DNA from: Ginglymostoma cirratum
Taxonomy: Eukaryota
Length of the DNA stretch: 64,000 nt
NCBI GenBank assembly: GCA_024137785.1
Contig: JAHRHZ010000061.1
Span: 4,746,085 to 4,810,084, forward strand
Reading direction: 5' to 3'
Shown here: piece after piece, positions 3,485-63,385 of the stretch
Position numbering within the stretch: position 1 is the stretch's first letter
Layout of the letters: the number at the start of each line of letters is the position of its first letter
Program-made: the position numbers and the translations under genes
Notes under the pieces: generated by a model
What the model was told of the DNA's origin: nothing
The model's input: only the letters and a program-made list of their open reading frames with translations
Database searches by the model: none

Positions 3485-3553
3485 CATCCAAGCTGCCATC
3501 ATCAGCCAGTCCGTCCTTCCCATCAAAACCTGTGCCTAAATCTGGCCCAGCAG
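3485..3553 (+). CDS. Exon S1, 69 bp, ASKLPSSASPSFPSKPVPKSGPA; GC donor
   Basis: ttttaattacag acceptor; CAG|gcaagt donor (GC-AG consensus); 23 codons open in phase 1; P/S-rich. Confidence 0.6.
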
Positions 3554-4847
3554 GCAAGTTCAGAAGTATTTTTCAAATAATTAACATAGGAATATATTTC
3601 ATCAGGATTATTGCTCAAAGTACAGTATGCATACTGCTGGTAATTATAAACATACGTATATGCAACACAGAAATAAATGAAATTCTGAAGAATTGCTTCC
3701 AAATATTTTGAATTGCACCAAAGTATTATATAAACCTTTGTAACTTGATGGAACTTAACTTTACAACTTCAGATTATAAATTGCTGCTTAAAAGCGGTTT
3801 GAGTGATTTTCCTCTTGGGTAAAAACTTAAGTTTACAGAAACCTATTTTAAGCACAGATCTATGTAACAGAACAATTATTTGTGTCCCTCTTTTACATCT
3901 TTTCGCTAATTTTCATGTAGAATTGTACAACTTATTTGAACTCTTCAATAGGTGCAGTGCAAACTTTAGATCCTCCTAACCTTTGGCTGCCTAGCGTAGA
4001 GTTCATGCAAGCGATTATCCAAGTACTTTTGGATCCTGCTGAAAAGAATTAATCATTGTCTTGACGTGAAGTTTATTAACATGCCAGAACATTAGAATTG
4101 ATTGTATTAATTGAGTGAACTGATGCCATTTTTAACAAATTGACCGAAAATGTTTAAAAATGAGAATTGTTTGTTTGCATCTTTTCACTAAATCAAACAC
4201 ACGGCAACTTGATGCTCGCATGAAATATATCATGTAGTCAGTACCCAACACTACTTGGCCGAACATGTATACTGTTTCTTTATTGTCATGAAACCATATC
4301 TGAATTTTTTTATCTCTGTTTTGACAATGTCGCTGAAAATAGCTAACAAAGCAAATATTCCCTGGCCTATTCTTTCTTTGGATTCATTTTCCAGTATGCT
4401 TGTGGTATTATTTTGGAAATGTGTTCTGTAACTAGTCCCTCAGTGATGTTTGCATGAAATGTATTTTCTGTCAATTATCAAACTTGTATTCAACATATTG
4501 TTCAGTTACAATATTCACCACTCACCGAAGGAAAAGGGAAATGTAATGTCACCTTGCAGACATCTGTATTTCGCTATGTAGTGTTGCATGGCTTTATACA
4601 GTAACATGGTGTGTATGTGGTATAAATTTCTCTTTTGTTGGCATTGTGTTTTATGGTTGGAGTGCCATAATTTCTTTGATAACATCCAGAGGTTCTGCCT
4701 AACTTGTTATGGCCAAATAATGAGAATTTGCATCTGTTACTGTCGAGCTTAAGTTACCACACGTGGAGGAGCCATCAGTATTCTAACATTGCGGCTTCAT
4801 TTAGTGTCTTGGATAATTTTATACCTCTTCTCTGAAAAACATTGCAG

Positions 4848-4922
4848 AAATTCAGATACCAGTTTTCCTCACTCCAAGCCCCCCTTCTCAACTTGATACC
4901 ACGGATAAGCAGCAACCCACAG
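4848..4922 (+). CDS. Exon S2, 75 bp, EIQIPVFLTPSPPSQLDTTDKQQPT
   Basis: acattgcag acceptor, ACAG|gtagat donor, 25 codons, similar to other S exons. Confidence 0.75.
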
Positions 4923-5782
4923 GTAGATTCAATTACTGAAAAATCTGGAGTGTTATTTCATTAGTGATATGTACTTTAATGCCTATAAATGCATCAAAGT
5001 TTGCTTATTTTGCATGACTGAGGCTTTAGATGTAACATTGAATTTGGAAGTATAAATTTTAATGCTTCATACTTATTGCTTTATAAAACAAATGATCAAG
5101 TTTTTTTAAGCTAGATTTTTGGTTCATAAAACGGTATTTGCATAATTTAGATGCATTATTTTCCAAATATTTTGAGCGGACACAATGAACCCTGTTTTCA
5201 ACTCACGGCCTGTGGCTGAGAAGATGGATGAGGTAATTTGCATTAAGATTTTTCCGAATGCTATTTGGATTGACTCCGGGAAGTGTGATAGAATGATCTA
5301 GTATGGTTTCTTTATCCTCTACTACTCCCTATGTGGGCATTTGCTAAACCCAATCTTATCATTTCCTTGGAAACTCCATGCAGATCAGAACTTCAGCAAT
5401 AAGGAGGATCACATGTTTGGACCCGTATCCTCTGTCCTATATGATGCTTTAAAGGATTTCCATCAAGAAGAGTTGTGTCCATTTTAAGCAATTCTAGCTG
5501 TTCACTTGCCTGAACTGTATTTGGACTCTCAGATCACAATACAATACATGGAATTACATTTGGAATTTTTAAGCATCTATCCTGCTCAGTAAACAGCAGG
5601 ATGCTCTATGAATTGGCCAATGCGCTATTATTGCACTTGTCTGTACATAGTGTTTGTATGTTGAAATGCAAATTAGGTTCCACTTTCAGTTAACTTATGA
5701 TAAATTCTTTTTCCAATGATGTCGGTTTCTCTCTGCTTGACCAGCAAACTGTTTCAATGTATTTTTCTAAAATGCATTACAG

Positions 5783-5875
5783 AACCTGTGACAACACCAC
5801 CTTCTACCACTTTGCCATTCACTATATTAAGTACAACTTCTGGTCACACTGCTGTGGACAAGCAGCATCTCCCAG
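5783..5875 (+). CDS. Exon S3, 93 bp, EPVTTPPSTTLPFTILSTTSGHTAVDKQHLP
   Basis: cattacag acceptor, CCAG|gtagtt donor, 31 codons, T/S/P-rich. Confidence 0.8.
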
Positions 5876-6389
5876 GTAGTTCTGATAATAACTTTCTAGA
5901 AAAGATGTGATTGTGTGTGGTGGTGAATTATTTTGTGATCTGTTCCAAATCAATTTGCAACATCTTGTGTGTATTTTCATTTTTTCATTTCAACTGGTGA
6001 AATTACATTTTGATGCAGTAGTCATTGCTGAGCGTATATTTAAAGCCTTGTGAGAAGTTACTGTAGCCATTCTGTCAATCAGCGAGCAGGAAAACATCAC
6101 ACATTTGAAATACTTTCATTTTTGTCAAGTTTCTCTCTTGGAAAACATAGACCTTTTCTCTATCTGTCCTTCGATAAATTTGAGTTGATAATCTTGGTAT
6201 GAATTTTCCTACTAGCATGTTCTGAAATCTGATTATTTAAACTTTAGTTTGTGAGAACCTAATATTGGAACTGGGAGACTGTGAACCTTGAACAAACACA
6301 GAACTTACTTTTTGCAAAGGTCAGTGACAGCCAGTCACAGTTTGACAGCCATATCCTTGATCTCATGACTGCACATGTAGCTCCTCAAC

Positions 6390-6485: not shown

Positions 6486-6843
6486 TAATCTCAGCTTTTG
6501 TTGTGTAGGATGCCGAATGAAGAATGTGTTTAAATGTGTGGACTTACTGTTTTGGATTCATTGTCATATTTGAATCAATGCCTTTTCCTTTTAAACATAT
6601 GGTTAATTAATCATATTAGTGGTAAGGTTTAATGCCTATTTACTAAATTTAATTGCTTAGAATATAACCTTTTTCTGACCAGCCTAATTTTGATGTGATC
6701 TATATTTGTTATGTTATGACTTCTTATTGTACCAAATTTGCTATGTTAGTTTACTTAATTTGTGGAAGTTATTTGTTTTCTCCTAATGTATCATGCAGCA
6801 ACCCAGGTAAAATCCGCCAACAGTTAATTTTTATTCACTTCAG

Positions 6844-6888
6844 GCACGACATCTGCTATAGATCCTGTGGAAACCCAGAAGTTCTCAG
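6844..6888 (+). CDS. Exon S4, 45 bp, GTTSAIDPVETQKFS (3' half of a 90 bp block 6799-6888)
   Basis: tttttattcacttcag acceptor, TCAG|gtagtt donor; use of the upstream AG (6797-6798) would include an in-frame TAA. Confidence 0.55.
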
Positions 6889-10545: not shown

Positions 10546-10626
10546 AACCCGAGATACCATCATCCAGCCATGGACCTTTCCATCCAACATCAGATCTTGA
10601 TGCCATGAATAATCAGGAATTCACAG
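10546..10626 (+). CDS. Exon S5, 81 bp, EPEIPSSSHGPFHPTSDLDAMNNQEFT
   Basis: aaattgcag acceptor, ACAG|gtagtt donor, 27 codons; 3' end closely matches S8. Confidence 0.85.
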
Positions 10627-12685: not shown

Positions 12686-12748
12686 AATTTAAGTTATGAT
12701 CCTCCGACGTATCATTCGTCACTCCAACTTCTGAACCTGTTGCCCCAG
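12686..12748 (+). pseudogene. Probable dead S-type exon, 63 bp, EFKL*SSDVSFVTPTSEPVAP
   Basis: ttacag acceptor and TSEP motif like the other exons, but in-frame TGA and CCAG|gcatgt donor. Confidence 0.55.
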
Positions 12749-14079
12749 GCATGTAGATATTCACTAGTAGTTTGATAATTGTATTCCCTTTTATACAGAG
12801 AATTATATGTGCAATCTCTAAAAATTTTGGCTTCCTACATTTCAGGTCAGTATACTGTAATAATTTGAAGTAAATGCTTGCAAATCAGATTTAATGATTA
12901 GTGGAACTTTAAAGAAACATTGCATCAATAATATTGCATTTACCAGAAATGCAACTCTTGCTGGATGTAAAGTAGCATGTCTGCATTCAGAGAACTGCTT
13001 TAAAAAGTACATTACCTGAATATTAAATTATATCCAAGCTCGTTATTTCAGACAGGAGGATTGTTTAGCCAATAGCCATCTAAATGAGGAAATAGTTACT
13101 GCACAAAGGAAGAATTTTTGTTTCCTACAATTGCCTGTGTCTCAGTTAGTAAATTGCTCCTATTTATTTTTGGTGGTTTGGCTAAACTGTATTTCTGGTT
13201 CTATTATGTTAATTTATTTCCTGGATCTCCATTAAGAAATAACAAGTATTCTTTGAAGAATGTTGTTTCATGTTAATATCTAAAAGCCTTATTCTTCACT
13301 CTGTTTCTTTTAACTGGTTCTAATTGGTTGAATTATGTTGATTTTGTCAATAGGAGGTTTTGGGTCTAAAAACAAACATCACAGTTTAAGTGTATGCCTT
13401 TGCCTTTAAAAGCATTTTAAATCGTTTATACAAGACGTGTTTTGCATTTCAAAATTGAATGAATTTTAAGTTTCCATCTCTTAGATGCCTTTTTTAAAAT
13501 ATTTTTGCCCTTAACCTGAAGTTTTTGCTCAAGATTAAAATGCATTATCTTAAAATAAACGTAATTTGTCATAGATTTTCACCAAGTGCATTTTGTTTAG
13601 CCAAATGAGATATTGTCAATTGATAGTAAGTGATTACAACAGGATTATGTTATCAATTTGGTGAATTTATATAGTGACTTTTGCTATTTGTTTCTGCTGA
13701 GGCAGAAGACATCTCTTATAAAAAGTAGGTACTGCAGATAAATCATGATTAGAGTGAACTTCTTGACTAGTTGCAATAATTGGGGGGTGGTGTTGGGTGG
13801 GGGTATGGGAAGTTGTTAGACGGGCACATTTCTGATTTGGTTGCTCATATTACTATGAGTTTTTGTTTAGATCTCTGCTAGGAGTTGGTTTTCTGGATGT
13901 GTTGGAGTGTGTACACTGTGATACACAAGATAGTACTACTGTGTGGAGCAGGATGATGGACTAGGTCATTTGTTGTTTGCCATCATTCATATGTTCATAC
14001 AATCTTAGCACAATTACTATGACCTGACATAATATTAGCAATTAGACATTTTCTTTTGTTTCTGTGAACAACATTGCAG

Positions 14080-14169
14080 AACCTGAGGTTCCTTCCGCTA
14101 CTAGTTCATTTTCATCCATTTCAAATTTGACTTCCAAACTTGATGTCACGGAGATGGACCGGTTCAAAG
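14080..14169 (+). CDS. Exon S6, 90 bp, EPEVPSATSSFSSISNLTSKLDVTEMDRFK
   Basis: acattgcag acceptor, AAAG|gtagct donor, 30 codons; one N-glycosylation sequon (NLT). Confidence 0.85.
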
Positions 14170-14810: not shown

Positions 14811-14891
14811 AACATGAGGAACCATCCTCCAAAGACTCCTTTTCACACACTACTTCTGAACCTCAAACAATGGATAACCAACAATTCCCAG
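14811..14891 (+). CDS. Exon S7, 81 bp, EHEEPSSKDSFSHTTSEPQTMDNQQFP
   Basis: aaaacag acceptor, CCAG|gtagtg donor, 27 codons, TSEP...MDNQ motif. Confidence 0.8.
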
Positions 14892-15274
14892 GTAGTGCCA
14901 TTAATATATGTAAAATAAATATTATGATTTCTTCACTGTGCCATATCACAATGCAATATGTTTATAAGTACTATATATTACATTAACTGCATCAATTCTA
15001 ATTCCTTAATTCACTTGTCAGTAAATTCCATTTCAATTAGCAATTAACAAGAGCACTTGGTTAAAATACGTTTTTTGAGCCATAAACTGATTTTGTTTAT
15101 AGTTGAGTTTTAACAAAGTACTTTGCTCAGATAACCTACTGTATCACACCCGTTGTTCTTTACTCTTATTCTACATTTAATCCTTTGTAATTCTATTTAA
15201 ATCAAGTATAACATGACTACATAGCTGCTATTTGATGTTGGTATATTATGTAAAATCATTTTGTTTTAATGGGA

Positions 15275-15524
15275 ACAAAAACAGAAATTGCTGGAAAAGC
15301 TCAGCAGGTCTGGCAGCATCTGTGAAGAAAAAAAAAATCAGGGTTAACGTTTCGGGTCCGGTGACCTTTCCTCAGAGCTGGTTCCTGTGAGGAGGAGTCA
15401 CCGGACTCAAAACGTTAATTCAGATTTTTTTCTTCGCAGATGCTGCCAGACCTGCTGAGCCTTTCCAGCAACTTCTGTTTTTGTTCCTGATTTACAGCAT
15501 CTGCAGTTCTTTTGGGGTTTTTTT
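15275..15524. mobile_element. Palindromic Penelope-type insert with minimal hammerhead core and about 15 bp target-site duplication
   Basis: About 100 bp inverted arms; tttgttttaatggga at 15260-15274 and 15525-15539; minus strand 15343-15376 reads CTGAGGA-AAGGTCACCGGACCC-GAAACGTT. Confidence 0.8.
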
Positions 15525-15535
15525 TTTGTTTTAAT

Positions 15536-16605
15536 GGGATGTTGGCAATACTGACAAGGCCAGCATTTGTTGCCCTAATTGCCTTTAAACTGAATGGTTT
15601 GATAGGTCATTTTAGTGCGCAGTTAAAATTCAACCACAATGCTGAGATTCTGGAGTCAAATCTGGGTAAGGATGGCAGATTTTTCTTTCTAAAGGGTATT
15701 AGTGAAATGATGGGATTTTACAAAAAAATCCCTTGTGACCATAGAATTGTTACTGAGACTACCTTTTCATGACGTAATCTAAAACACTACTGCAAATGGA
15801 GCTGATTGCTGGTTTAAACAAAACAAGAGGTTTATTCTGAAAGTGTGCATAGAGGAAACAGCATTCCAAGCGACTTCTTCCGTGATCGTAATTTGAGTCA
15901 TATATTTGTACAACTTGCTGTCTCATTAGGTATAGAATAGGTGCAATGATTACAGGCTTTAACAGCTGCCTGACGTGTTCTCACTAGTGCATTAAAAGGC
16001 AAAATACACCTATCCTAGTGCGCATTCCTTCGCACTGGGTCACTTTTGTCCCATTAATGCAGCATCTGACAGTTTGCAACAATAGGATGCTTGCCATTTC
16101 TGAAAGTACCTCACCTCATCCAGCCAAGGCAATCATCTCTTCTGCAAGTTAAATACTCCTTTTGAATCTGCAGTATCAACAGTATCCATCCCTTTAGAGG
16201 ATGCAGAGGAGTTTCACCCAATCCATCATAAAACCCTAACTAGATGATTATGGTTCCTGACATTGCAGGTATTCCAATCGTGGTGTCCCATTGTGTGTGT
16301 GTAAGGATGATTATCTTCCTATTTAGTTTACTGTAGTTACTATGCATCCAATATTAAATGATTTGATTACGGTATACACATTGGAGTTTTTCTAATATCT
16401 TGTCGGTGTCTTTGGCTCTGATGCACTTATTTATCTGACTATTAATTTCTGTACCTACTCTTCAAACTACAACATTTATAATTCTAGATTAATCAACATC
16501 TTTAAATTTTACTAACTGCCATGGTGGGATTTCAAACCATAATACCAGAGAATTAACACGGGACTCGTTGCTAGTCTGGTGACATTTGTACTATACTGCC
16601 GTCAT
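15536..16605 (-). mobile_element. SINE (same family as the copies at 41.5-59.8 kb) split by an insertion
   Basis: 15536-15769 and about 16480-16605 are reverse-complement matches to the 3' and 5' parts of the SINE at 59440-59800. Confidence 0.65.
15770..16474 (-). mobile_element. Probable solo LTR (705 bp) nested in the SINE
   Basis: TG...CA ends (tgacgtaat ... actacaaca), flanks ttca/ttta, minus-strand AATAAA about 60 bp from the 3' end, no coding signal. Confidence 0.5.
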
Positions 16606-20244: not shown

Positions 20245-20334
20245 AGTATGGGGTATTATCCTCCATCATCTCAAATATTATCACTTTACGTACGACCTCT
20301 GAACCTGATGCCATGGACAACCAAGAATTCACAG
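20245..20334 (+). CDS. Exon S8, 90 bp, EYGVLSSIISNIITLRTTSEPDAMDNQEFT
   Basis: acattgcag acceptor, ACAG|gtagtt donor, 30 codons. Confidence 0.85.
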
Positions 20335-21931: not shown

Positions 21932-22021
21932 AACCTGAGATTCACCTCAATGTCGATTCATCACCTACCACGTCAAAAAAAAATTATGAATTTGATTCTA
22001 CACAAAGGAAGCAGATTTCAG
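21932..22021 (+). CDS. Exon S9, 90 bp, EPEIHLNVDSSPTTSKKNYEFDSTQRKQIS
   Basis: pyrimidine tract plus aattacag acceptor, TCAG|gtagta donor, 30 codons. Confidence 0.8.
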
Positions 22022-22583: not shown

Positions 22584-22670
22584 AATTTGAGGCACCATTC
22601 TCCAGCAATACACCTGTCAACAATTTAAAAACAACTCCACTTGATGTCATGGACACAAAACAATCCAAAG
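22584..22670 (+). CDS. Exon S10, 87 bp, EFEAPFSSNTPVNNLKTTPLDVMDTKQSK
   Basis: gttccag acceptor, AAAG|gtactc donor, 29 codons. Confidence 0.8.
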
Positions 22671-27947: not shown

Positions 27948-27949
27948 CA

Positions 27950-28430: not shown

Positions 28431-29367
28431 CTATGCCTCTTTGGAAAAGCCCATTTCATTAGGAAGCTCTTTGCTTAGCAAATGTCAGTGAAAATTGACT
28501 TCAATTTTATAACTCTTTGTATACATTCTGTAGTTGTATTGACATGTTCTATTAAATTGGCTAAAGATATTGTTACCTTTTTGAGTCTTTTGTTGTCCAT
28601 TACAATTAAATCCTCTCCTCTACCATTTAATCAGTACCTGAATTTGATATACTGATCTCCCCTTCCTCAAATGCTTATGTTAAAGATGTAGTAGACTCTC
28701 CGCACCATCATGGCATACCTCTCACTTGCTCACAATACAGTGTTGCACTGCAGTGCTTTACTTTGGGTCACATTTGCACTTTTCATTGCTAGACTGCTTT
28801 TAATGATAACTTGTGCACAGGTACAGGCCACCCATCTCATGGAGTTGACCAAGGTGAATATAGGATTTCTCACTTTCCTAATGCTAATGCACGTTGCTTG
28901 GATGCTCACAGCATCTCTGTCTTGCCTTACCTTTTAACAGAGACACAATGCCAGCTTGTCATAATTGCAACCCCTGACACTTGCGATGTGGTCAATCCAA
29001 ATTCAGTAGCTAAAATTAATAACCTAAAGTAGAAAGATGTCACAAGTAGTCCTCCCAATAATTTCTATCTCATAGGCTGAATGTTATAGCATTATTTTAT
29101 AAGACAAAGCCTTTTTATTTTAATTGCTATTCACTTTCTCACATGCTATGTAACAGAATGCACTCATGGTTCAGTTCATGACATGAGTGCTAGTATACAT
29201 GAATATTCCTTCCACATCTATATTTGTTTTAACAATTGTTCACTTTAAAAATAATAGAATCTTGCCTTAGATATTCTCTTGAGTACAGTGCTGCTGGTTG
29301 ATGATTTTAATGTTCAAAGCATTGTGTGCATTTTCTGGCATGTCAGCACAGCCTAATATCTAACCTA

Positions 29368-31156: not shown

Positions 31157-31297
31157 ACCATCATGTGCCAACTACTGACACTCCTAATGTCTTCAATTTA
31201 ATCTCAGAACATAAACTGCCGATCACTGACACCCCTAATGTATTCAAACCAATCTTAGAATCTGAACCTGCAGAGATAGCAGAGAAAGAACTGACAG
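31157..31297 (+). CDS. Repeat exon A1, 141 bp, DHHVPTTDTPNVFNLISEHKLPITDTPNVFKPILESEPAEIAEKELT
   Basis: ttccttcttatcccttgcag acceptor, ACAG|gtattt donor, 47 codons. Confidence 0.9.
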
Positions 31298-32185: not shown

Positions 32186-32293
32186 CAGAAGTTCTAAAGT
32201 GATGTCCACAAGTATAGTAATATTAATTAAGGCAATACAATTTTCATTAGAGGTTAAGAATTTCATGACTGGCTTCCTTTTTATCCACAGCAG

Positions 32294-32428
32294 ACCGTGA
32301 GGTGCCCACCTCTCACAATGTGTTCACTTTAATCTCAAATCGTGAGCTGCCAATCACTGACTCCTCATATATGCTCAATTCAGTATCAGAATCTGACCCT
32401 GCTAAGATAGGAGAGGATGAACTTACAG
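32294..32428 (+). CDS. Repeat exon B1, 135 bp, DREVPTSHNVFTLISNRELPITDSSYMLNSVSESDPAKIGEDELT
   Basis: cagcag acceptor, ACAG|gtactt donor; 6 nt in-frame deletion relative to 141 bp. Confidence 0.9.
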
Positions 32429-36144: not shown

Positions 36145-36276
36145 AAAACCATAAGATGCCAATCTCTGACAATATACTCAGTCCACTCTCACACTATGAG
36201 CTGCCAGTCACTGACTCTCTGCATGTCATCAGTTCAATCCCTGAACCTGCTATGATAGGGAAGGATGAATTTACAG
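36145..36276 (+). CDS. Repeat exon B2, 132 bp, ENHKMPISDNILSPLSHYELPVTDSLHVISSIPEPAMIGKDEFT
   Basis: cttatccttag acceptor (second AG of the NAGNAG mutated to AA), ACAG|gtactt donor, 44 codons. Confidence 0.8.
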
Positions 36277-37465: not shown

Positions 37466-37606
37466 GCCATCATGTACCAACTCCTGACACTCCTAATGTC
37501 TTCAATTTAATCTCAGAATATAAACTGCCTGTCACTGACACCCCTAATATATTCAAACCAATTCTAGAATCTGAGCCTGCAGACATAACGGAGAAAGAAG
37601 AAACAG
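37466..37606 (+). CDS. Repeat exon A2, 141 bp, GHHVPTPDTPNVFNLISEYKLPVTDTPNIFKPILESEPADITEKEET
   Basis: cccctgcag acceptor, ACAG|gtattt donor. Confidence 0.9.
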
Positions 37607-38497
37607 GTATTTCTGATACTATTATTCTACCTGGAACATGAACTCATGAATAGAGTAAATAAAAATAGATGAATGTTGATATTTGTATTAATGCAAGATT
37701 CTGATACATGCTGTAGGTGCTATGGCGCACTTTTACAATTAAATAAGTTCGATAGTATATTGAGTCACATACAGTTCAGTGTTGTGGCACAGAACATGAA
37801 ATGAGCAATCTTCTGCCTACCTCCTGGATCATATGTATCTTACTTCCTTTTATTGGATTTTTTTGTCAACATTGATATTTAATTGAGCTTTCAAGCTCAG
37901 CTTAACTAGAAACTATTAACCCATCAAGACTGTGTACTATTTTATTGAATGAGTTTGGTTTATATGGTGGCAGCAGTATTGCTACACGGACTATCCGTTA
38001 TTATATCACATTGTTATGAATGTTTGCAAGGCATTTATTCTAATTGCATAAAGTGCAAAAAATGAGCAAGGTACTACATTTCATGGAGATTAAGATTTTT
38101 TTGTTTATCACGGTGGTTTATTTGGTCAAAATACTTGATCTCAAAGTTTAGAGAGTGCTATAAAGTAAACACATTCACTATGGTGTGAACTTTAATGGAT
38201 AACAATTAATGTTTACGGAGTGGAAGCGATGTTTGTGCATTGAGTGTCTGTTGCTATTTCAGTGTTGTATGAATCTTTTTCAATAATGCTGAGTGAATTA
38301 ATGCACAGTTAAATTGAATATTCAATGAAATGTATTGTGTGCTGTATTTGATTAGTTTTAACTGTGTTTAATGACTATAATAAAAGAATACTACAACATT
38401 GTTCAGGAATACAACTATGTTCCTCAAACTAGTACAGAGATTGTTTTCACTATTGATTAAGAATCTTGTATTTGGATTCCTTCATTATCCCCAGCAG

Positions 38498-38638
38498 ACC
38501 ATGAGATGTCAACCTCTGACACTCGCAATGCATTCAGTTCAATCTCAGACTATGAACTACCAGTTACTGATTCTCCACATGTGCTCCATCCAGTGCCACA
38601 ACCTGATCCTGCTAAGATAGGGATGGATGAATTTACAG
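38498..38638 (+). CDS. Repeat exon B3, 141 bp, DHEMSTSDTRNAFSSISDYELPVTDSPHVLHPVPQPDPAKIGMDEFT
   Basis: ccagcag acceptor, ACAG|gtactt donor. Confidence 0.9.
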
Positions 38639-39481: not shown

Positions 39482-39622
39482 ACCAACATGTGCCAACTCC
39501 TGACACTCCTAATGTCATCAGTTTAATCTCCGATCATAAACTGCTGGTCACTGACACCCCTAATATATTCAAACCAATTCTAGAATCTGAACCTGCAAAG
39601 ACAGCTGAGAAAGAAGTAACAG
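39482..39622 (+). CDS. Repeat exon A3, 141 bp, DQHVPTPDTPNVISLISDHKLLVTDTPNIFKPILESEPAKTAEKEVT
   Basis: cccctacag acceptor, ACAG|gtattt donor. Confidence 0.9.
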
Positions 39623-41925: not shown

Positions 41926-42066
41926 ACCAGCATGTACCAATTTGCAATGCTCGTAGAGCCTTCAATTTAATCTCGGATTATAAACTGCTGGTCACTAACA
42001 CCCCTATTGTATTCAAACGAGACTTGGAATCTGAACCTGCAAAGATAGAGGAGAAAGAAGTGACAG
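41926..42066 (+). pseudogene. Dead A-type exon (psiA4), 141 bp, frame still open: DQHVPICNARRAFNLISDYKLLVTNTPIVFKRDLESEPAKIEEKEVT
   Basis: Acceptor reads cctttgg (no AG at the homologous site); donor reads ACAG|atattt (GT changed to AT). Confidence 0.85.
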
Positions 42067-43060
42067 ATATTTCTGAGACTATTTCTGCCTGAAACATGTA
42101 TGTTGAGTTGTGTATTAATGCAAGAGACGATTCTTGCAGAAGCTTTGGCACACTTCTTTAATTAAATAAATCTGATAATCAGTATGTTGTCTCACACACA
42201 GTTCAGTGTTGTGGCATGCAATACATGAAATGAGTCTGGAATTTATGCATTTTGCCTCTCTCTATTGGAATCTTTGGTCAATATCCTTATGTTATTGAGC
42301 TTTGAGGCTGTGCTTAGCCAGACAGTGACTTACAAGTTGCACAGACACAAGATTTATTGAATGATAATTATGCCTTTATGGAGCAAAGTTATTCCATGAG
42401 GTATCTGTTATCATATCATTATCTTATGAACCTTCTGGAAGTCGTTGACTGTCTTCACACACTGCATATAAAATGAACAAATCACTACACATTAAATGGA
42501 AATTAAGCACTTTTGTTCTTACCATTCGATTATTCACTCAGCAAGCTAATTTCCTTAAGTGTAGAGATTGTGTTTTGTATAAATTGTGTCAAACTATAGA
42601 ATCACCAAGTCATTGCATGTTTTATGGAAAGTAGTCGTTTTTTTCACACAGTTAAATTATTCGCTGAGTACAATTATCTCCTAAAGTTTAGCCATCGTGC
42701 TTTGCTATAAATAGTCGGTCTATCATCACTTCAGTGTAAAAAATTGGATCGTAAATAACTTTTACATGGTAGAAGCGACATTGGTGCTTTGACTGTCTAG
42801 TGCCAGGTTACTTTCATATGAATCATATCATGGAATCCATAGCTGGAATTAATTATTTTACTCACTGAATATAATTTAGCATTGAATTGAATGTATTATT
42901 ATACGATGTATTCAGTTACTTTAGAGTATCTATTTAGTATTAGAACGAGAGGATACTTCAACGGTGATCAAGAAATACAGATATATTCCTCAATTTAACA
43001 AAGATTATTATCACTATTGACTAAGAATTTTGTGTCTGGATTCCTTTTTATTCCTAGCAG

Positions 43061-43201
43061 ACCGTGAGGTGCCAACCTCTGATACTCGCAATGTGTTCAG
43101 TTCAATCACAGATTATGAGCTACCAGTCACTGATTCTTCACATATCATCAATTCAATCCCAGAATCCGACCCAACTAAGATAGGGAAGGATGAACTTACA
43201 G
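43061..43201 (+). CDS. Repeat exon B4, 141 bp, DREVPTSDTRNVFSSITDYELPVTDSSHIINSIPESDPTKIGKDELT
   Basis: tagcag acceptor, ACAG|gtactt donor. Confidence 0.9.
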
Positions 43202-45093: not shown

Positions 45094-45234
45094 ACCATCA
45101 TGTGCCAACTCTTGACACCCCTAACGTCTTCAGTTTAATCTCAGAGTATAAACCGCCAGTCACTGACACCCCTAATATATTCAATCCAGTTCTACATTCT
45201 GAACCTGCAAGGACAACACGGAAAGAAGTAACAG
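45094..45234 (+). CDS. Repeat exon A5, 141 bp, DHHVPTLDTPNVFSLISEYKPPVTDTPNIFNPVLHSEPARTTRKEVT
   Basis: cccctgcag acceptor, ACAG|gtattt donor. Confidence 0.9.
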
Positions 45235-46045
45235 GTATTTCAGACCATATCTCTCCCTAAGCACTTGAATATATAAAAACAAGTGCATGTTGAGGTTTGT
45301 GTTAATGCAGCACATATTTGTCTGTCACCCTGTCATTGCTGCGCCACTCTTTTGCAATTAAATAAGTGTGATCGTACACTGTCTTGCATGCAAATCTTTC
45401 CGTTTTGTGGCCCACTGTATAGGAAGCAAACAAACCACTGCCTATCTCCTGAAATTTTTGCACTTTATTTCTATCTATCAAATTCTTTGGTCAATATCTT
45501 GATTCTGTGGAGCTTTAGGCTGTTTTGGCTAGACAGAGAATTTCAATACTGTACTTTTATGATGTTTATTGAATAATAATTAGCTTTATGTATTGGAAGA
45601 AATGTTACTGCATGGAGTATCTGTTATTGTACCACTGTCTTGTGAATCTTTTTGAAAGGCATGTGTAATTGCACATTTCATGGAACTTTAAGCATTTTTA
45701 AAAATCTTAGTTCACTTATTTGCTCAACAATCTGAGATCCTAGAGTCTAGGCACTGTGCTTTGCTACAAATTGTCAACCCATCATCACTTCATTGTGACA
45801 TTCATTGTATGATAGGTTACTTTTGCATAGTGGAAGCATGTTAGTGCATTTATTGTCTGTGGCCATGTCATGATCCTCTGATTTTAAAAAATAATACTTG
45901 AATTAATTCATTTTCACTCAGTATAGTTTAGGTTTGTACTGTATTTGATGTGCAGAAATACAAATGTATTCCTTAAAGCAAAATTGGAATTATTTTCACT
46001 ATTGATTTTGAATTTTGCATATGAACTCCTCCTTATTCCTAGCAG

Positions 46046-46186
46046 ACCATGAGGTGCCAACCTCTGACACTTGTTATGAGTTTAGTTCAATCTCAGACTA
46101 TGAGCTACCAGTCACTGACTCTCCCCATGTGCTCCATTCAGTACCAGGATCTGAACCTGCAAAGATAGGGAAGGATCACTTAACAG
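46046..46186 (+). CDS. Repeat exon B5, 141 bp, DHEVPTSDTCYEFSSISDYELPVTDSPHVLHSVPGSEPAKIGKDHLT
   Basis: tagcag acceptor, ACAG|gtactt donor. Confidence 0.9.
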
Positions 46187-47106: not shown

Positions 47107-48087
47107 AAGAGACTGCTACATTTTTTAGATTTTAAAAGAAATATGGGGTAGGGTGAGAAAGTGTGAATGTGACATTGAGATGGAGAATCAGCTAAGATCG
47201 TGTTGAATGGCAGAGCAGACCCAAAGAGCCACGTGGCTTCCCCTGCTCCAAATTTCCATGTTTCTGAATTTCCTTAGAATAAAGAAGGCTACAGAGAAAT
47301 AGAATTCTTACCTTCAAAACTCTAAGTGAAAACTATTTCCTTGTCCACCCTTTGAATGTTTTGGCTATGATTTTGACTCCATGATGAGCACTGGTAATTG
47401 ATTATGTGACAAAAGAAGTTATTGATCCTATCCACTTTATTAACATATTACCTCACCTTGAAATTTCTGTTTGATCACCTCGTTATCCTTTCTGTGCCAA
47501 CAAAAGCAGTTCTAAATTTTCCCACCCTCTCCTGACTGAAGTGCCTTATTACTGGTTACGTTCTAGTGATTCTCCTCTGTACCCTTTCTAAGAGACTTCT
47601 TCATTCCTTAATTGCCATGTGCAGAGTTGTCAGCAATATTTCATCAGAGGTGTAATCGGTGATTTGTGACATCCCAGCATGATATAAATGGAAGTAATCC
47701 AAGTGTTTTCTTAACTGTTTTATCTTTTGTCCTTCCGGATTTTAGGTTTTAATTGGGCAGAAATGTCATCAGTTTCCTTATGTTTTTAAAATTGCACTAC
47801 TTAAGTTCATAATTAGTCAGCTCTAAGTAGTTCATTCACTCATTGACGCCAGCAAATCCTGTCAGTTAATTCGAACCAATCACTGTACTGCCCTCAGTCT
47901 GATCTGTTACTTCACGGGTGTAGGGCACAAAATATTGTGAATAGATCAGCTATAACAAGGGGAAGGTGTAATCGACCCAAATTTGAGTGACACCACTGTA
48001 AACCACCTCCCAGCCTGTAAAACATCCATACACCATCATTTTTGTATCCACATCACTCAATTCTTAATTCAGTTGGCTTCCTTCTTA

Positions 48088-48660
48088 ATATGTCCTTTAG
48101 GGAAGGAAACAGCCATCCTTACCTCGTCTGGCCTACATGTGACTCTAGACCCACAGCAAAGTGGTTGACTCTCTACTGCCCTCTGGGCATTTAGGGATAG
48201 GCAATAAATGTTGCCTGGTCAGCAACGCCTTCATCCCGTGAATGAATAAAGAAAAATAAAAGTCTCTTATATACCACCTTGTTAACTGTCTTGGGGAAAG
48301 TCCAAGGATGCAGAAAACATGGGTTCAAATAGTGACATGGCAATTATTTGAATATAGATAATTTTTTTTCTAAAGGAATCGAACTATCCTCATTTCATCT
48401 CTGAAGCATGAAGTGAATCTCAGTAATGGTGATTCCATAAGTTACCAACAATCATCTTAAAAACCTATCTGGTTTAATAATGTTCTTTGGAGAAGGAAAT
48501 CTGCTTTATTTTCTTAATCTGCCAGCCGTGTGATTGTTAAACTATAGTATTGACCTCCTGAAATGGCCCAGCAAACCATTTGGTTCAAGAACACTTAGAG
48601 ATGGTCAACAAGTAATAGCCTTGCCTGTGACACACACACACCACATGATAGAACAATGAC
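48088..48660 (+). mobile_element. Two adjacent copies of the unit SINE family (short copy about 48088-48260; unit copy about 48300-48660)
   Basis: ccttacctcgtctggcctacatgtgactctagacccacagcaa...catcccgtgaatgaataaa; second copy more diverged. Confidence 0.7.
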
Positions 48661-49251
48661 AACAATCTTAACAGGCTTCTTATGTGGTCCTTTATTACAC
48701 GCCTTGGGAATATCTAGGTGTGTATCTATTACACTAGCTTGGCTAATCTTCTCTGTCCATGCATCCAATTAAGTTATTCAGATGTAATTAACTGTTTACA
48801 AAGTCATACTGGTACTTCTTGATTCATTCGAGTCTTTTAACATGAATAGTTTATTTATTCTTAACAATGGATTTCAATAGCTACCCCAGCATCATCATTA
48901 GCCTGACAGCTCTATAATTTTCACATTTCTCACTAATATGTTCTTATATATAAGATTAGCAGTTATCCTGCCTTCTCCTCCATCACTGAAGATTAAAAGA
49001 CTGTGCTACCCATACCTTTGGTTCTTCTGGTAATCTCAGATTCATTATGTAAAGTTTAGTATTGTATAAAATCTATTAGATGCAAACAATGTAATTAAAA
49101 TAGAATCCATTTAAAGTGATAATGGAAGAATGAGACAAATCAAATTCAAAAGTGCTTGACATCCAGTGAAGCAAATATTCAAAAATAGAAATATGAAGTT
49201 ATCTTCATGACAGATCGAGTATTGTATCCGCCTTCCCTCTTATCCCTGCAG

Positions 49252-49383
49252 ACCGTCATGTGCCAACTCGTGATGCTCCTAGTGTCTTCAGTTTAATCTC
49301 AGAATATAACCCACCTGTTACTGATATCCCGAATGTATTCAAACCAATCCTAGAGTCTGAACCCGCAGAGAAAGAAGTGACAG
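49252..49383 (+). CDS. Repeat exon A6, 132 bp, DRHVPTRDAPSVFSLISEYNPPVTDIPNVFKPILESEPAEKEVT
   Basis: ccctgcag acceptor, ACAG|gtattt donor; 9 nt in-frame deletion; not in the ORF track. Confidence 0.9.
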
Positions 49384-50303
49384 GTATTTCTGAGACCATT
49401 TCTACCTAGAATATGAATTTCTGAATGGAATAAATTGTAATAGATGCATGTTGAGGTTTTGTGTTAATGCAAGAGAAAATTCTGACACATGATGTGGTTG
49501 CTATGCCGCAATTAGATAAATAAATATGTTTGATAGTCTGCACACTGTTTCACATGCAACTCAATCTGTGTTGTGGCACACAATATATAAAACCAGGAAT
49601 TCACTGCCTATCTCTTGGAATGTATACCTTTTACTTCTCTCTATTAGTTTCTTAGTCAATGTTCTTATTTTATGGAGCCTCGCGGCTATGCTTGGCAAGC
49701 AGATAATATTCAAAGCTGTACTTTTGTGATGTGTATTGAATGATAATTGGCTATGTGATGGAAGCAATGTTATTGCATGGATTAGCTGTTTTCATACTAC
49801 TCTGCTTTGAATTGTTTGGAAGACATGTATTGTTATTCCTCAGTGCATATAGAATATTCAAATCACTGCACATTTCATGGAAAATAAGCACTTTTGATAT
49901 CACCATTGAATTATTTGGTTATCACACTCTTTTGCTAAAGTTTAGAGACTGGGCTTTGCTATAGATTATAACTTACCATCTCTTCTTTATGATGTACTAA
50001 ATTACTTTTACACAGGAAGAAATATTGGTGTATTAAGTGGCTGTTGCCAGGTCACTATCACAATAAATCTTTTTCAATAATGTGAAACTAATTAATCTAT
50101 GCACGAAGTATAATTTAATATTGAATGGAATGCATTGTTAAATGGTGACTTTGAAGAGTATTTAACAATGAATGTAATGAGAGAATATTATAATAGTGCT
50201 AGAGTGATATTCACAAATATAATTATATTTTGCAAAACATGACAAAGGTTATTTTTACACAGATTGAGAATTTTGTATTTGGATTCCTTCTTATCCCCAG
50301 CAG

Positions 50304-50444
50304 CCCATGAGGTACAAACCTCTGACATTCGCAATGTGGTTAGTTCAATCTCAGACAATGAACTGCTGGTCACTGATTCTCCCTATGTGTTCCATCCAGT
50401 CTCAGGATCTGACCCTGCAAAGATGAGGAAGGATAAATTTACAG
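50304..50444 (+). CDS. Repeat exon B6, 141 bp, AHEVQTSDIRNVVSSISDNELLVTDSPYVFHPVSGSDPAKMRKDKFT
   Basis: cagcag acceptor, ACAG|gtactt donor. Confidence 0.9.
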
Positions 50445-50732
50445 GTACTTCTGACAATAACTGCATTTTTTTGAATTAGCAAAGGATTGAGTAAAGAGTA
50501 TAGGCATGTTGAAGTTGGACTTTAAAGCAGAGTTAGGGCACAAACTGTAGATTGTATGCCACAGTAGTCAAGTGAGTAATTTAGTTCTATATGAAATGCA
50601 TTCATTATTACAGTAAGCATATGATAGAAGCAAACTGTTACAATTCTCCTATTTAAATGCAGATTGTTTATCCTTTTTGGATTATTTGATCAGAAGACCA
50701 TCAAGGTCTTGGACTGGATTAAAGATTTAATT

Positions 50733-53284: not shown

Positions 53285-53520
53285 AATAAAAAAAACTGCA
53301 GATTCTGGAAATCTGAAACAAAAACAGAAATTGCTGGAAAATCTTAGCAGGTCTGGCAGCAACTGTGGAGAGAAGTTGGAGTAATTGTTTCGAGTCCAGT
53401 GACCCTTCTTCAAAACTGGAGGCCTGAAGTTCTGAGTTCTTAAGAAAGGTCACTGGACCCAAAACATTAACTGATTTCTCTCCACAGGTGCTGCCAGACC
53501 TGCTGAGATTTTCCAGCAAA
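53285..53520. mobile_element. Palindromic Penelope-type insert (degenerate cores)
   Basis: ttgctggaaaatcttagcaggtctggcagca ... tgctgccagacctgctgagattttccagcaa inverted arms. Confidence 0.8.
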
Positions 53521-53646: not shown

Positions 53647-53778
53647 ACCATTTTGTGCCAACTCGTAGTGTCTTCAATTTAATCTCAGAACATAAAGTGC
53701 CGATCACTGATACCCCTAATGTATTCAAACCAATCCTAGAGCCTGAACATGCAGAGATAGCGGAGAAAGAAGTGACAG
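53647..53778 (+). CDS. Repeat exon A7, 132 bp, DHFVPTRSVFNLISEHKVPITDTPNVFKPILEPEHAEIAEKEVT
   Basis: cccctgcag acceptor, ACAG|gtattt donor; 9 nt in-frame deletion. Confidence 0.9.
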
Positions 53779-54640
53779 GTATTTCTGATACTATTTCTGC
53801 CTGGAACATGAACTCCTGAATGAGTAATTAATAAGAGATGCATGCTGAGCTGTGTGTTAATGCAGGAGAGGATTCTGACACATGCTGTAAATGCTATGCT
53901 ACACTTTTTTACAATTGCAACTCATTTGTAAAATGAGCAATTCACTATCAATGTACTGGAATTTAGGTATTTTGCTTCATTCAGTTGGATTCTTTCATCA
54001 ACTTTCTTGCTGGTTGGATCTCAGAGGCTTTGCTTAGCTGGAATGTGCCTGTCAAACAAGGTTGAACCATGGTGGAGTTTATTGGATGATAATTAGTTTA
54101 ATGTCTTGGAAACAGCATTAGTGCATGGAGCATCTGTTTTCATACAGTTTTGTGAGATGTTGGGTAGGCATTTGTTGTCTTGATTCAAAACACATGAAAT
54201 AAGCAAACCATTTTGTGGAAATTACATCCCTATTGGATTATTTGCTCATTGTGCTTATTCCATAAAGTTTAGATTCTTGTGAAGAATTGTGCTTCAACTC
54301 ATCATTACTATATAGTAAAGTTTATGAAATAATAATTCACTTTAATGTAGCAGAAACAATGTTATTACATTGATTTTCTGTTAGCATCGCATCATTGTAT
54401 GAATCCCTTTCAATTATATTGAATTAATTAATTTAATCACTGAGTATAAATTCATGATGAATGAAATGTTTTATTACATGATCTATTTGGTGACTTTGAA
54501 GAGTACTTTATCTTTTTTAATGAGGGAATACTACAACAGAGCTACATTGATGATCAGAAGTATACCTACATTCCTCAAAAAATACTGGCATAATTTTCAC
54601 TTTTTATTAAGAGTTTTGGCTTCCTTCTTATCCCCAGCAG

Positions 54641-54781
54641 ACCATGAGGTGCCCACCTCTAACACTCGCAATGTAGTCAGTTCAAAATCAAACTATGAGC
54701 TGCCAGTCACTGACCTTCCGTATGTGCTCCATCTAGTCCTAGGATCTGACCCTGCTAAAATAGGGAAGGAAGAATTTACAG
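54641..54781 (+). CDS. Repeat exon B7, 141 bp, DHEVPTSNTRNVVSSKSNYELPVTDLPYVLHLVLGSDPAKIGKEEFT
   Basis: cagcag acceptor, ACAG|gtactt donor. Confidence 0.9.
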
Positions 54782-56918: not shown

Positions 56919-57059
56919 ACCATCATGTGCCAACTCGAGATTCTCCTAGTGTCTTCAGTTTAATCTCAGAATATAAACAGCTGGTCACTGACACTCCTAA
57001 TGTATTCAAACCAGTCATAGAATCTGAACCTACAGAGATAGCGGAGAAAGAAGTGACAG
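56919..57059 (+). CDS. Repeat exon A8, 141 bp, DHHVPTRDSPSVFSLISEYKQLVTDTPNVFKPVIESEPTEIAEKEVT
   Basis: ctctgcag acceptor, ACAG|gtattt donor. Confidence 0.9.
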
Positions 57060-57976: not shown

Positions 57977-58117
57977 ACTATGAGGTACCAGTCTCTGACA
58001 CTCTTGGTACGGTCAGTTCAAAATCAGACTATGAGCTGCCAGTCACTGACTCTCCCTATGTGCTCCATCCAGTCCCAGGATCTGAACCTGCTAAAATAGG
58101 GAAGGAAGAATTTACAG
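57977..58117 (+). CDS. Repeat exon B8, 141 bp, DYEVPVSDTLGTVSSKSDYELPVTDSPYVLHPVPGSEPAKIGKEEFT
   Basis: caacag acceptor (first AG of the NAGNAG lost), ACAG|gtactt donor. Confidence 0.9.
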
Positions 58118-59872: not shown

Positions 59873-59976
59873 ACACAATTCTGAGGAAGGGTCACCAAAC
59901 CCAAAACAGTAACTCTGCTTTTTTTCTTCACAGATGCTGCCAGACCTGCTGAGCTTTTCCAGCACTTTGTTTTTGT
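59873..59976 (+). mobile_element. Single-arm Penelope-type insert with 11 bp target-site duplication
   Basis: tccaccacatt at 59862-59872 and 59977-59987; ctgaggaagggtcaccaaacccaaaac degenerate core. Confidence 0.78.
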
Positions 59977-60522: not shown

Positions 60523-60663
60523 ACAGTCATGTCCCCGTTCCTGCCACTCCCAGTGTCTTCAGTTTAATCACCGAACATAAACTGCCGGTCACTGGTTCCC
60601 CTAATATATTCAAACCAGTTGTAGAATCTGAACCAGCAGAGATAGTGGAGAAAGAAGTGACAG
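60523..60663 (+). CDS. Repeat exon A9, 141 bp, DSHVPVPATPSVFSLITEHKLPVTGSPNIFKPVVESEPAEIVEKEVT
   Basis: cccctgcag acceptor, ACAG|gtattt donor. Confidence 0.9.
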
Positions 60664-61485
60664 GTATTTCTAAGACTATTCTACCTGGAACTCCTAAATG
60701 GAGTAAATGATGAGAGATGCATGTTGACTGTGCGTTCATGCAAGAGAAGACTCTGACACTTGCTGCAGGTGCTATGCTGCACTTTTTAAATTGGAATATG
60801 TTTGAGAGTGGACTATCTTGCATGCAGCGCATCCGATGTTGTTACACAAAGTGTATGAAATGAGCAGTCCACTGCTATTTCTTAGTATTTACGCATTTTG
60901 CTTCGTTCTATTGGATTTTTCGGTCGAAGTACTTATTTCATGTAGATTTGAGGCTGTGCTTGGCCATTAATAGACTTTCAAGGCTGAACTTTTTGATTTT
61001 TATTGGATGATAATTGGCTGTGAGTTGGAAGCAATGTTACTGCATGGGGTATCAGTTATCAATCTCCTTGGAACCTTTTGGAAGGTATTGACATTCCACA
61101 GAGCATACAGAATGGAAAAAAATACCACAGCACATTTTATGGAATTTAAGCATTTTTGTTATCACTGTGGATTATTTCCTCACTCTGCTTATTTAATAAA
61201 ATTTAGAGCTCTTACTTTGTTCTAAAGTGTCTGGCCACCTATCATCACTATATTGTGAAATATATTGGATGGATGAATTAATCTACACATAGTATAATTT
61301 AGATTTGAAGGGAATGCATATTATATGTTGTAATTGGTTACTTTGGAATAGATTTAATTATAAAGACAAAATACTGCACAGAGTGCTACATTGACATCCA
61401 GAAATATGAATATACTCATCAAAACAACATAGTATTTCCACCGAGAAATTAAGAATTTTGCATTTGGGTTCATTCTTATCCCCAG

Positions 61486-61625
61486 CAAACCAGGAGGTGC
61501 CTACCTCCTGACACTTGCAATGTATTCAGTTCAATCCCAGACTATGAGCTGCCATTCGTTGATTCTCCGTATGTCATCAGTTCAACCCTACAGCACGAAC
61601 CTGCTAAAGTAGGAAAATTTCAACT
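61486..61625 (+). pseudogene. Dead B-type exon (psiB9)
   Basis: B homology (gaggtgcctacctc...actatgagctgcca...gaacctgctaaag); +1 C insertion (acctcctgac vs acctctgac) creates TGA; no GT donor at the homologous end. Confidence 0.85.
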
Positions 61626-61889
61626 GCTTCTAATAATAGTTGTATCTTTTGCATGAATTGAGGAATGGAGGAAATTAATTTTCAGATAAGTGCTAGAAAG
61701 GCAATACCACAGCATTGTGTGTTTCCTGTCAAATCATGCCCTGGCATGATATCCAGTCATTGTTACTGTATGATGTGCCTGAAATGAGCAATCCATTGTG
61801 TATCTGTTGGAATTGATCTGTATCACTTGATCATTTGGCTGTGCGCTTTTTTTTAGTGAAATGTGGGCACAGCACATCAAACAGGATAT

Positions 61890-62360
61890 CCATCGGAAAG
61901 AGTGGAGATTTGCTAACATGCAAGTCAAGAGAAGGACTTCAGTTTTGTTGAGAGACTGGAGAAGCTTGGATGTTTCTCTTTAGAACAAAGACAATGAAAG
62001 GGGCATTGAATAATTGTGCTAAAATTCTGAGGGATTTAGACAAAGAAACAGTTGCTAATCAGATCAAGATCAGTAAGCAAAAGGCAGACATGAGGAAACC
62101 TGTAAAAGAAACAAAGGTGTCACGAGGAGAAACATTCTTGCACAATGAGTCATTATGACCTGGAATGCACTGCATGAATACATGACGCACATAGCTCCAA
62201 CAGGACCTTGCAGAAAGGATTTGGATAGATAGTTGAAGAAGCAAATATTGGAAAAGGGGCAAAAAGCAAGAGATTGAGACTAACCTGTCTACTGCAGTTC
62301 TTTGATGAGCTAACATGTTGGGCCATTAGCTTCCTTCCATGCTGTCTGATTCAATGATTT
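61890..62360 (+). mobile_element. Old CR1-like LINE 3' fragment
   Basis: gagagactggagaagcttggatgtttctctttagaacaaagac...gacctggaatgcactgc...gcttccttccatgctgt. Confidence 0.6.
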
Positions 62361-63244
62361 AGATACTGTATTTGGTTGACTTCATGGTTATACTGCTGTA
62401 ATGTTTATTGAATGATACTTATTTTATGTACTGAAAATAATGCCAAGCATAGAGTCAGCTTTACCAATGTTATATTGAAATTTTGGAATGTTAAATTATT
62501 AACCAATCTTTTGTGAAGTTTAATATTGTGTAGAAAGTATTGTCTATTACACAATCTGTGGCAGCATTTAAACCTATTGGAAGAGTTACACCAGAAACCA
62601 GGTGAGATCCCCAAATTTAGGTTCTGGTGGGACATCCCAAACTGTTAAGGTCCCAAGCGAGGAGAGATGAACTGGCACCCTTTCTTTCTTCATAAAGATG
62701 CTATGCCCCCCACACACCTTTTATCACTTAAATGAATGTGAGATTTAGCTGTATGCATAGTGTATCTGATGGTCAATGCATGGTCTTGCATGGAACCCAT
62801 CCATTTTTGTTGCACAAAGATATTAATTAACGATCCACAGCACTGCCCTAGAATTTTTACATTTTGTTCATCTCTGTTGAATTTTTTTTTGTTTGATTTG
62901 TCCTTGTCAATACAGTGCATGTCGACCTATCAACATTATATTCTATACAACAGACTGCATGTTTCTCCACAGAGAGTCTATTGACCAATCGCTTATTCAT
63001 AAATCATTTTAAATAATATTGCATTAATTCATTTAAACACTGAGTATAATTTAAAATTGTAAGAAATGTATTATTACATGCTGTATTTGATTAATTCTGA
63101 TAGCATTTAATTATTACGGTGGCAGAATACCACAACACTGCTACGTTAATGTCCAGGAATGCAAATATAATTCATCAAAATAGCGCAGAATATTTTTATC
63201 CAGGGATTAAGAAATTTGTATGGTTTTCCTCTTATCACCAGCAG

Positions 63245-63385
63245 ATCAGGAGGTGACAACCTCTGAGACCCAGGATCAATTCAATTTTATCTCAGGCACT
63301 GAGATGCTGAGCACTGACTCTCCTAACGTGTTGAGTCCAAACCCAGATTCTGAATCTGCTAACATCGAAGAGAAAGAAATTTCAG
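63245..63385 (+). CDS. Divergent repeat exon C, 141 bp, DQEVTTSETQDQFNFISGTEMLSTDSPNVLSPNPDSESANIEEKEIS
   Basis: cagcag acceptor, TCAG|gtactt donor, 47 codons. Confidence 0.85.

Follow-up and report, generated by a model that had tools for sequence, protein, structure and literature searches.

Frame-preserving cassette exons that set the length of a low-complexity spacer are known from the CD44 variant exons, the CD45 A/B/C exons and the PEVK exons of titin. A closer system is ABI3BP (also named TARSH, or Target of Nesh-SH3). Human ABI3BP contains a cluster of 10 exons that were predicted to be mutually exclusive, and that are in frame 1-1, 63-93 nt long and basic (PMC5740500), and a 1,786-residue isoform carries two FN3 domains around a disordered middle (PMC9239745). 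In osteoarthritic cartilage, a 38-kb cassette region of this gene (chr3:100808235-100846372), belonging to the disordered part, is included more often (PMC9239745), and in differentiating stromal cells the disordered region 391-818 is partly spliced out (PMC13518942). A review presents mouse data on ABI3BP and integrin β1 (PMC6426741), and in nurse shark spleen, Abi3bp was found in vascular clusters (PMC10529500). Here we describe an array of 27 short exons in a stretch of 64,000 nucleotides from the nurse shark Ginglymostoma cirratum (contig JAHRHZ010000061.1, positions 4746085-4810084), hereafter the window. In an initial annotation, based on this DNA alone, the array was considered to be an unannotated, mucin-like stalk. 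We conclude, with a probability of roughly 85%, that it encodes optional spacer modules between the two FN3 domains of shark ABI3BP, a predicted secreted matrix protein.

The locus resembles human ABI3BP in the two FN3 domains around a middle part, in the tandem phase 1-1 exons and in having TFG as a neighbour. However, the human exons are rich in Arg, Lys and Pro and basic, whereas the shark exons are acidic, reach 144 nt and contain an internal duplication of 17 codons. CD44 and CD45, which are membrane proteins, and the intracellular titin are products of unrelated genes and differ in this respect from the predicted secreted FN3 protein discussed here. To a large extent the finding is therefore an ordinary one, namely one more ABI3BP orthologue with a cassette array known from human and other vertebrates.

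Identity and architecture of the gene

Judged by its sequence, the array gene is ABI3BP. Flanking DNA was read over 180 kb upstream and 220 kb downstream, and an exon located 169 kb from the window start matched the Pfam family TARSH_C (PF21731) with an E value of 1.5e-18 and 68 bits, versus a cut-off of 27. The top 25 homologues of this exon, among the best 120 of 1,270, were all shark or ray proteins with 98-100% identity, mostly named Target of Nesh-SH3 or abi3bpa, the others being uncharacterised apart from one 'FNDC1-like' protein. Of note, automatic names of orthologues are misleading in this family, as the horn shark orthologue is called 'FNDC1-like' and the little skate orthologue 'mucin-2'. 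The C-terminal 276 residues are 98% identical to zebra shark, 74% to chimaera and 67% to alligator ABI3BP, and in a tree without a named FNDC1 sequence the gene clusters with elasmobranch ABI3BP (support 94/92). The gene is annotated in close relatives.

The gene model comprises 57 visible exons encoding 2,088 residues, with about 32 more residues, estimated from zebra shark, in upstream DNA that is given as N. The model extends from 117 kb before the window to 121 kb past its end, and the domain order is a hydrophobic N-terminus, FN3, at least 43 phase 1-1 spacer exons, FN3, TARSH_C and a stop. Ten exons situated 12-117 kb upstream of the window encode the predicted signal peptide, the N-terminal FN3 domain and 3 phase 1-1 spacer exons, and when joined they give 340 residues with zero stops and 96% identity to zebra shark. 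Past the window there are 13 intact phase 1-1 exons and 4 decayed copies, and a further 7 exons encode the C-terminal FN3 domain and TARSH_C. The initial limits of 3485-63385 thus enclosed only the 27 spacer exons that lie within the window and missed the 3 before and the 13 after it. From the first window exon to the stop of the gene the reading frame is open for 1,748 codons. A collagen reading of a Gly-rich upstream exon was dropped, since the exon matches ABI3BP residues 254-277.

The zebra shark ABI3BP protein aligned collinearly along the locus in tblastn, with the FN3 exons on both sides at 94-98% identity. Its isoform X7 (XP_048396825.2) shows the same domain order, although it contains no more than the final 30 residues of the exon that comes first after the window. 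Pfam assigned two fn3 stretches and TARSH_C to this orthologue, and when single exons were searched, three array exons and three single FN3 exons gave no match. Searches of the PDB yielded only generic FN3 matches, to the C-terminal part. The 19-residue Kyte-Doolittle maximum of the zebra shark orthologue is 2.26, at residue 1, the signal peptide being judged by hydropathy only, and no second hydrophobic or transmembrane segment was seen by this measure, with maxima of 1.16 after residue 30 of the zebra shark protein and 0.8 in the array. The flanks proposed for inspection by the initial annotation thus provided a hydrophobic N-terminus, FN3 and TARSH_C, but no transmembrane exon.

TFG, ABI3BP and IMPG2 are tabulated together at human 3q12 (PMC3561653). 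In the shark, a TFG exon lies about 95 kb past the ABI3BP stop on the opposite strand (L032:5848-5931, - strand), with 27 out of 27 residues identical to PDB 9e7c. IMPG2 was not found in the 180 kb upstream, either by motifs or by a SEA family search. When the genome was searched for the SEA and PB1 families, neither matched the contig of the array, and these searches were therefore uninformative for synteny.

Exons of the array and their history

All 27 exons in the window are located on the + strand, measure 45-144 nt, are multiples of 3 and have phase 1-1, with AG acceptors throughout and GT donors except for a GC at the first exon, in line with the roughly 27 symmetric exons initially proposed. 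Joined together, they form 3,186 nt encoding 1,061 residues with zero stops. The earlier figure of about 1,055 residues is slightly short, and fits if some of the NAGNAG acceptors present on seven B exons (32291, 38495, 43058, 46043, 50301, 54638 and 63242) cut 3 nt later. These acceptors allow one-residue variants, and several isoforms of relatives differ by one residue in length. Out of 351 possible joins of an exon to a later exon, none creates a stop, so frame-preserving skipping, as previously suggested, is possible. Also the composition was correctly described as acidic and S/T/P-rich, with 33.8% S+T+P, 16.9% D+E, 6.9% K+R, one Cys (in B5) and no Trp. A splice-site scan for open S/T/P- and acid-rich exons found 15 distinct donors in + strand phase 1, whereas the other two + phases had 1 and 0 and the three phases of the - strand 3, 3 and 1, and the array is thus more than chance. 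For this final scan the pyrimidine-tract cut-off was relaxed, since the strict setting left only 3 candidates. A repeat search found families of 14-18 copies between 31 and 63 kb, with likeness reaching into the introns. Tandem Repeats Finder did not see the array and listed four unrelated rows in the window. Counterparts in the same order are present in zebra shark ABI3BP models for 25 of the 27 exons, at 77-97% identity. The exons are listed below, and percentages give identity to the zebra shark models (9 isoforms).

Exon u1, 3485..3553, +, 69 nt; GC donor CAG/GCAAGT at 3553/3554, the sole one among the 27; 95%
Exon u2, 4848..4922, +, 75 nt; 92%
Exon u3, 5783..5875, +, 93 nt; 97%
Exon u4, 6844..6888, +, 45 nt; 93%
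Exon u5, 10546..10626, +, 81 nt; 85%
Exon u6, 14080..14169, +, 90 nt; 83%
Exon u7, 14811..14891, +, 81 nt; 96%
Exon u8, 20245..20334, +, 90 nt; 93%
Exon u9, 21932..22021, +, 90 nt; 93%
Exon u10, 22584..22670, +, 87 nt; alternative acceptor 6 nt upstream; 96%; missing from zebra shark isoform X17
Exon A1, 31157..31297, +, 141 nt; a further acceptor, in frame, inside the exon 90 nt from its end; 89%; 4 of 9 zebra shark isoforms omit or shorten this exon
Exon B1, 32291..32428, +, 138 nt; 84%; missing from 2 of 9 zebra shark isoforms
Exon B2, 36145..36276, +, 132 nt; 77%; low contig depth of 0.45 in run X15
Exon A2, 37466..37606, +, 141 nt; no counterpart of its own in the 9 zebra shark isoforms; covered in run X15
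Exon B3, 38495..38638, +, 144 nt; no counterpart of its own in the 9 zebra shark isoforms; covered in run X15
Exon A3, 39482..39622, +, 141 nt; 93%
Exon B4, 43058..43201, +, 144 nt; 85%; joined to A4 in run X15 contig 14
Exon A4, 45094..45234, +, 141 nt; 89%; in run X15 contig 14
Exon B5, 46043..46186, +, 144 nt; 89%; single Cys of the array (Tyr in zebra shark); low depth of 0.47 in run X15
Exon A5, 49252..49383, +, 132 nt; 84%; missing from zebra shark isoform X19
Exon B6, 50301..50444, +, 144 nt; 94%; missing from zebra shark isoforms X19 and X20; run X15 contig 15 on 50298-50444
Exon A6, 53647..53778, +, 132 nt; 88%; missing from zebra shark isoforms X19 and X20
Exon B7, 54638..54781, +, 144 nt; 87%; missing from zebra shark isoform X20
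Exon A7, 56919..57059, +, 141 nt; 93%; missing from zebra shark isoform X20
Exon B8, 57977..58117, +, 141 nt; 91%
Exon A8, 60523..60663, +, 141 nt; 89%
Exon B9, 63242..63385, +, 144 nt; 89%

Exons A2 and B3 (37466-38638) may have been gained here, lost in zebra shark, or be present in its at least 11 other isoform numbers. The 45 nt preceding u4 (6799-6843) follow an AG and resemble the exon family, which suggests that u4 is a 90-nt exon reduced to its back half. A 90-nt form of u4, starting at 6799 from the AG at 6798, was rejected, as it contains an in-frame stop and the models of relatives use the 45-nt form. Other candidate exons, near 7510, 16154-16268, 16750 and 28820, are not open in phase 1-1 and gave no profile match.

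Profile searches revealed 8 decayed copies, with lost splice sites, stops or frameshifts, next to 40 intact exons when the part of the array past the window is included. Four of these copies are located in the window:

Decayed copy, 12686..12763, +; in-frame stops and no GT donor; profile E 1.2e-6; like an exon that horn shark, basking shark and rays retain
Decayed copy, 28941..29050 (approximate limits), +; stop and no donor; profile E 2e-5; like a horn shark exon (tblastn 63% over 27 residues)
Decayed A copy, 41926..42066, +; frame open, acceptor AG and donor GT lost; depth 0 in its bin in all four runs
Decayed B copy, 61486..61625, +; frameshifted, donor lost

The array consists of two parts. 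Exons u1-u10 (45-93 nt) are collinear with other sharks and recognisable in chimaera, whereas the 17 exons of 132-144 nt belong to two families, A and B, that alternate along the array and were split with 97/97 support in a tree of exons plus flanks. The proposed homology between neighbouring exons holds firmly for these 17 long exons, but several of the first ten show a weak likeness across families (u1, u4, u6, u7 and u10, with profile E values of 0.05-0.7). Sister pairs in the tree (A3/A4, B3/B4 and B7/B8) point to copying of B-A units. Paralogous long exons are 80-84% alike, and with a lenient aligner their flanking introns are 67-78% alike versus 61% for random pairs. The ratio of nonsynonymous to synonymous substitution rates (dN/dS) between paralogues is 0.51 for A (28 pairs) and 0.62 for B (21 pairs; B2 and B9 left out). 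A long exon corresponds to a 90-nt exon of which a front block of 51 nt has been doubled, with 26-38 of 51 nt identical between the halves in seven exons tested. Because of this doubling, 11 of the 17 long exons contain an in-frame AG 90 nt before their end, and zebra shark isoform X8 lacks exactly the 17 front residues of A1. The same-order counterparts of 25 of the 27 exons in zebra shark indicate that the array did not expand recently. The repeats of basking shark are unordered, and their matches to the long exons lie at 42-71%.

The sequence shows that a phase 1-1 exon of about 90 nt acquired the internal 51-nt duplication, giving the A and B exons of 132-144 nt, and that these were copied together with the adjoining introns, in many cases as B-A pairs. 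A copy whose splice site or reading frame was lost may then have stayed behind in the array, which would be cheap under symmetric phase. The locus provides a clean teaching case of exon birth and death, including an internal duplication that created a second acceptor.

Splicing of the array and alternative explanations

Reads were placed on 36050-50650, a stretch that covers eight consecutive junctions. In run X15, which consists of contigs, contig 14 (366 nt) comprises 43058-43198 followed by 45091-45231, which, given a shared CAG, corresponds to the predicted splice from 43201 to 45094 between B4 and A4. Two other contigs end at exon edges (contig 15 on 50298-50444, and contig 11 on 38492-38633, the latter continuing elsewhere). 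Depth in this run was 2.3-4.7 in six bins with live exons, 10.6 in the B4 bin, which is partly repeat, and 0.45-0.47 for B2 and B5. Neither the dead A copy nor five of the intron bins had any depth, and in the other intron bins depth was either 1.3-1.7 from scattered pieces or very high from repeats. The junction check suggested by the initial annotation thus produced one join at a predicted GT-AG site.

Isoform models of relatives bear on skipping. In zebra shark, all 8 other isoforms differ from the longest one by whole exons or by the internal acceptor, bar one 2-residue insertion, and 8 of the window's 27 exons are missing from one or more isoforms. Clean deletions of 17-378 residues relative to the longest isoform of the species account for 19 of 19 stingray, 3 of 3 basking shark and 4 of 4 manta isoforms. 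Isoform comparisons for epaulette shark, electric ray and thorny skate were left uncounted, as the repeats misalign. It is on these models that skipping rests, and the initially suggested splice-tunable spacer is therefore likely, while the joints listed for the nurse shark include no skipping.

The symmetric phase would let the gene gain, lose and skip exons freely, and alternative splicing may drop single exons or blocks, which would set the spacer length, the negative charge and the probable O-glycan load between the folded ends. The low-complexity middle is presumably disordered. Binding to cells through integrin β1, as in mouse, may apply to the shark by analogy with the mammalian orthologue.

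Several observations weigh against the array being such a set of optional spacer modules in ABI3BP. Only one of the eight consecutive junctions, B4-A4, was present among the joints listed, which were dominated by repeats, and no exon-skipping junction of this species was among them for 36050-50650. Run X15 carries no record of being RNA, nor does any other run that the search listed. The raw poly-A run X22, of which 24% was read, showed zero depth on the exons, no part of run X23 could be placed, and run X1 gave nothing usable. Moreover, reads can be misassigned among exons that are 80-84% alike, the isoforms of relatives are computed RefSeq models, paralogue dN/dS values of 0.5-0.6 signify merely moderate constraint, and about 32 residues of the protein fall in upstream DNA that is given as N.

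A possible alternative, although on balance we consider it unlikely, is that the array in this same gene is a nearly neutral linker, the length of which is changed harmlessly by unequal crossing-over, and that skipping is splicing noise. This is compatible with a spacer, differs from it in function only, and can apply to part of the array. The eight decayed copies beside 40 intact exons and the dN/dS values fit such a linker, as do the many weak donors of the CAG/GTA(C/T)TT type, and the middle of ABI3BP varies from 773 to 1,819 residues among vertebrates, with repeats that are unrelated in sequence between lineages. However, 25 of 27 exons have kept order and frame between nurse and zebra shark, the first exons can be recognised even in chimaera, and regulated inclusion has been reported for human cartilage and stromal cells (PMC9239745, PMC13518942).

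Far less probable is a cluster of the Dscam kind, in which each transcript would contain a single A or B exon. The exons are indeed tandem, homologous and of similar length, and the ten human exons were predicted as candidates for this type of splicing (PMC5740500), but the neighbours B4 and A4 are joined in contig 14, the models of relatives string many copies together, and introns of about 0.8 kb or more would leave no steric block.

The membrane-tethered mucin-like stalk of an unannotated gene, of the CD44, CD45 or CD46 kind, as initially suggested, was prompted by phase 1-1 cassettes, 34% S/T/P, almost no Cys or Trp, and it would agree with the automatic 'mucin-2' name in little skate. The open frame, however, continues into FN3 and TARSH_C and stops there without a transmembrane segment, so that the array lies between two FN3 domains and is not a stalk. 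Pfam found no Link, phosphatase, SEA or sushi family on the zebra shark orthologue, and none of four orthologues carries SEA or VWD/CysD/CK domains. In the PTS region of a mucin, S+T exceeds about 40%. Along the array, S+T ranges from 15 to 34 per 100 residues, with a median of 21, and the single Cys likewise argues against 'mucin'. The flanking FN3 and TARSH_C exons refute the membrane-stalk reading, barring a complementary DNA with an unseen transmembrane exon.

The genome contains exactly one other TARSH_C match, a distant paralogue (G000:C162:1792138-1805480) which is probably FNDC1. That the array gene itself is FNDC1 or a third family member is scarcely credible, despite the common TARSH_C domain and the 'FNDC1-like' horn shark name, since the last 276 residues side with ABI3BP of alligator and chimaera, the paralogue is 52-65% identical to shark and alligator ABI3BP in its last exons and forms a long separate branch in the tree, and TFG adjoins the array gene.

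Composition, charge and distribution among vertebrates

The array in the window has a net charge of -10 per 100 residues. When ABI3BP middles were compared, all 9 cartilaginous-fish sequences (8 species) were net acidic (-4.8 to -9.4 per 100 residues), whereas all 10 bony-vertebrate sequences were net basic (+3.4 to +11 per 100 residues); the sequences were hand-picked, and as kin share traits, this amounts to one contrast, not 19. P-x-[S/T] is commoner in the joined product than in shuffles (43 versus 27.3 ± 4.5), which is compatible with O-glycosylation, no more. S-x-E is rarer (0 versus 12.2 ± 3.2; repeats are not independent), and so are N-x-S/T sequons for N-glycans (1 versus 9). Many S-x-E kinase motifs are a feature of the SCPP-like acidic phosphoproteins of mineralised tissue, and the absence of S-x-E together with the rarity of sequons speaks against such a mineralising phosphoprotein.

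It is conceivable, but rather doubtful, that in cartilaginous fish the ABI3BP spacer became a polyanion tuned by splicing. If so, the choice of exons would determine how much fixed negative charge a shark matrix protein carries and would tune hydration or calcium binding in cartilage or vessel wall, the reverse of bony vertebrates, in which the spacer is basic and would bind polyanions. The reversed charge between cartilaginous and bony vertebrates is an open lead. Inclusion of ABI3BP cassettes is a leading splicing change in human osteoarthritic cartilage, and a natural acidic spacer could help to separate effects of length from those of charge.

The initial annotation also suggested an expansion in elasmobranchs. 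This is correct for the repeat sequence, which matched only sharks, skates and rays (20 of 20 matches; 7,984 candidates scored), with related repeat units visible in chimaera. As judged from sequence models, however, a large cassette array is not an elasmobranch invention, since ABI3BP middles measure 844-1,451 residues in frogs, caecilians and crocodilians, where isoforms are numbered up to X50 and differ mostly by clean block deletions. Neither is the array novel, given the phase 1-1 cluster and regulated cassettes of human ABI3BP and the zebra shark exons in the same order. Literature searches by title and beginning of the abstract, which did not extend to subscription papers or bioRxiv supplements, listed no publication on the shark ABI3BP array.

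Some other elements are present between the exons. At 33394-34167, a pair of short interspersed repeats forms a 133-nt, 98% inverted pair around an N run, with more copies at 15272-15513, 53289-53519 and 59919-59974. The long intron between u10 and A1 contains a GC-richer stretch at about 25750-27950, which by eye resembles what is presumably a decayed LINE fragment on the - strand.

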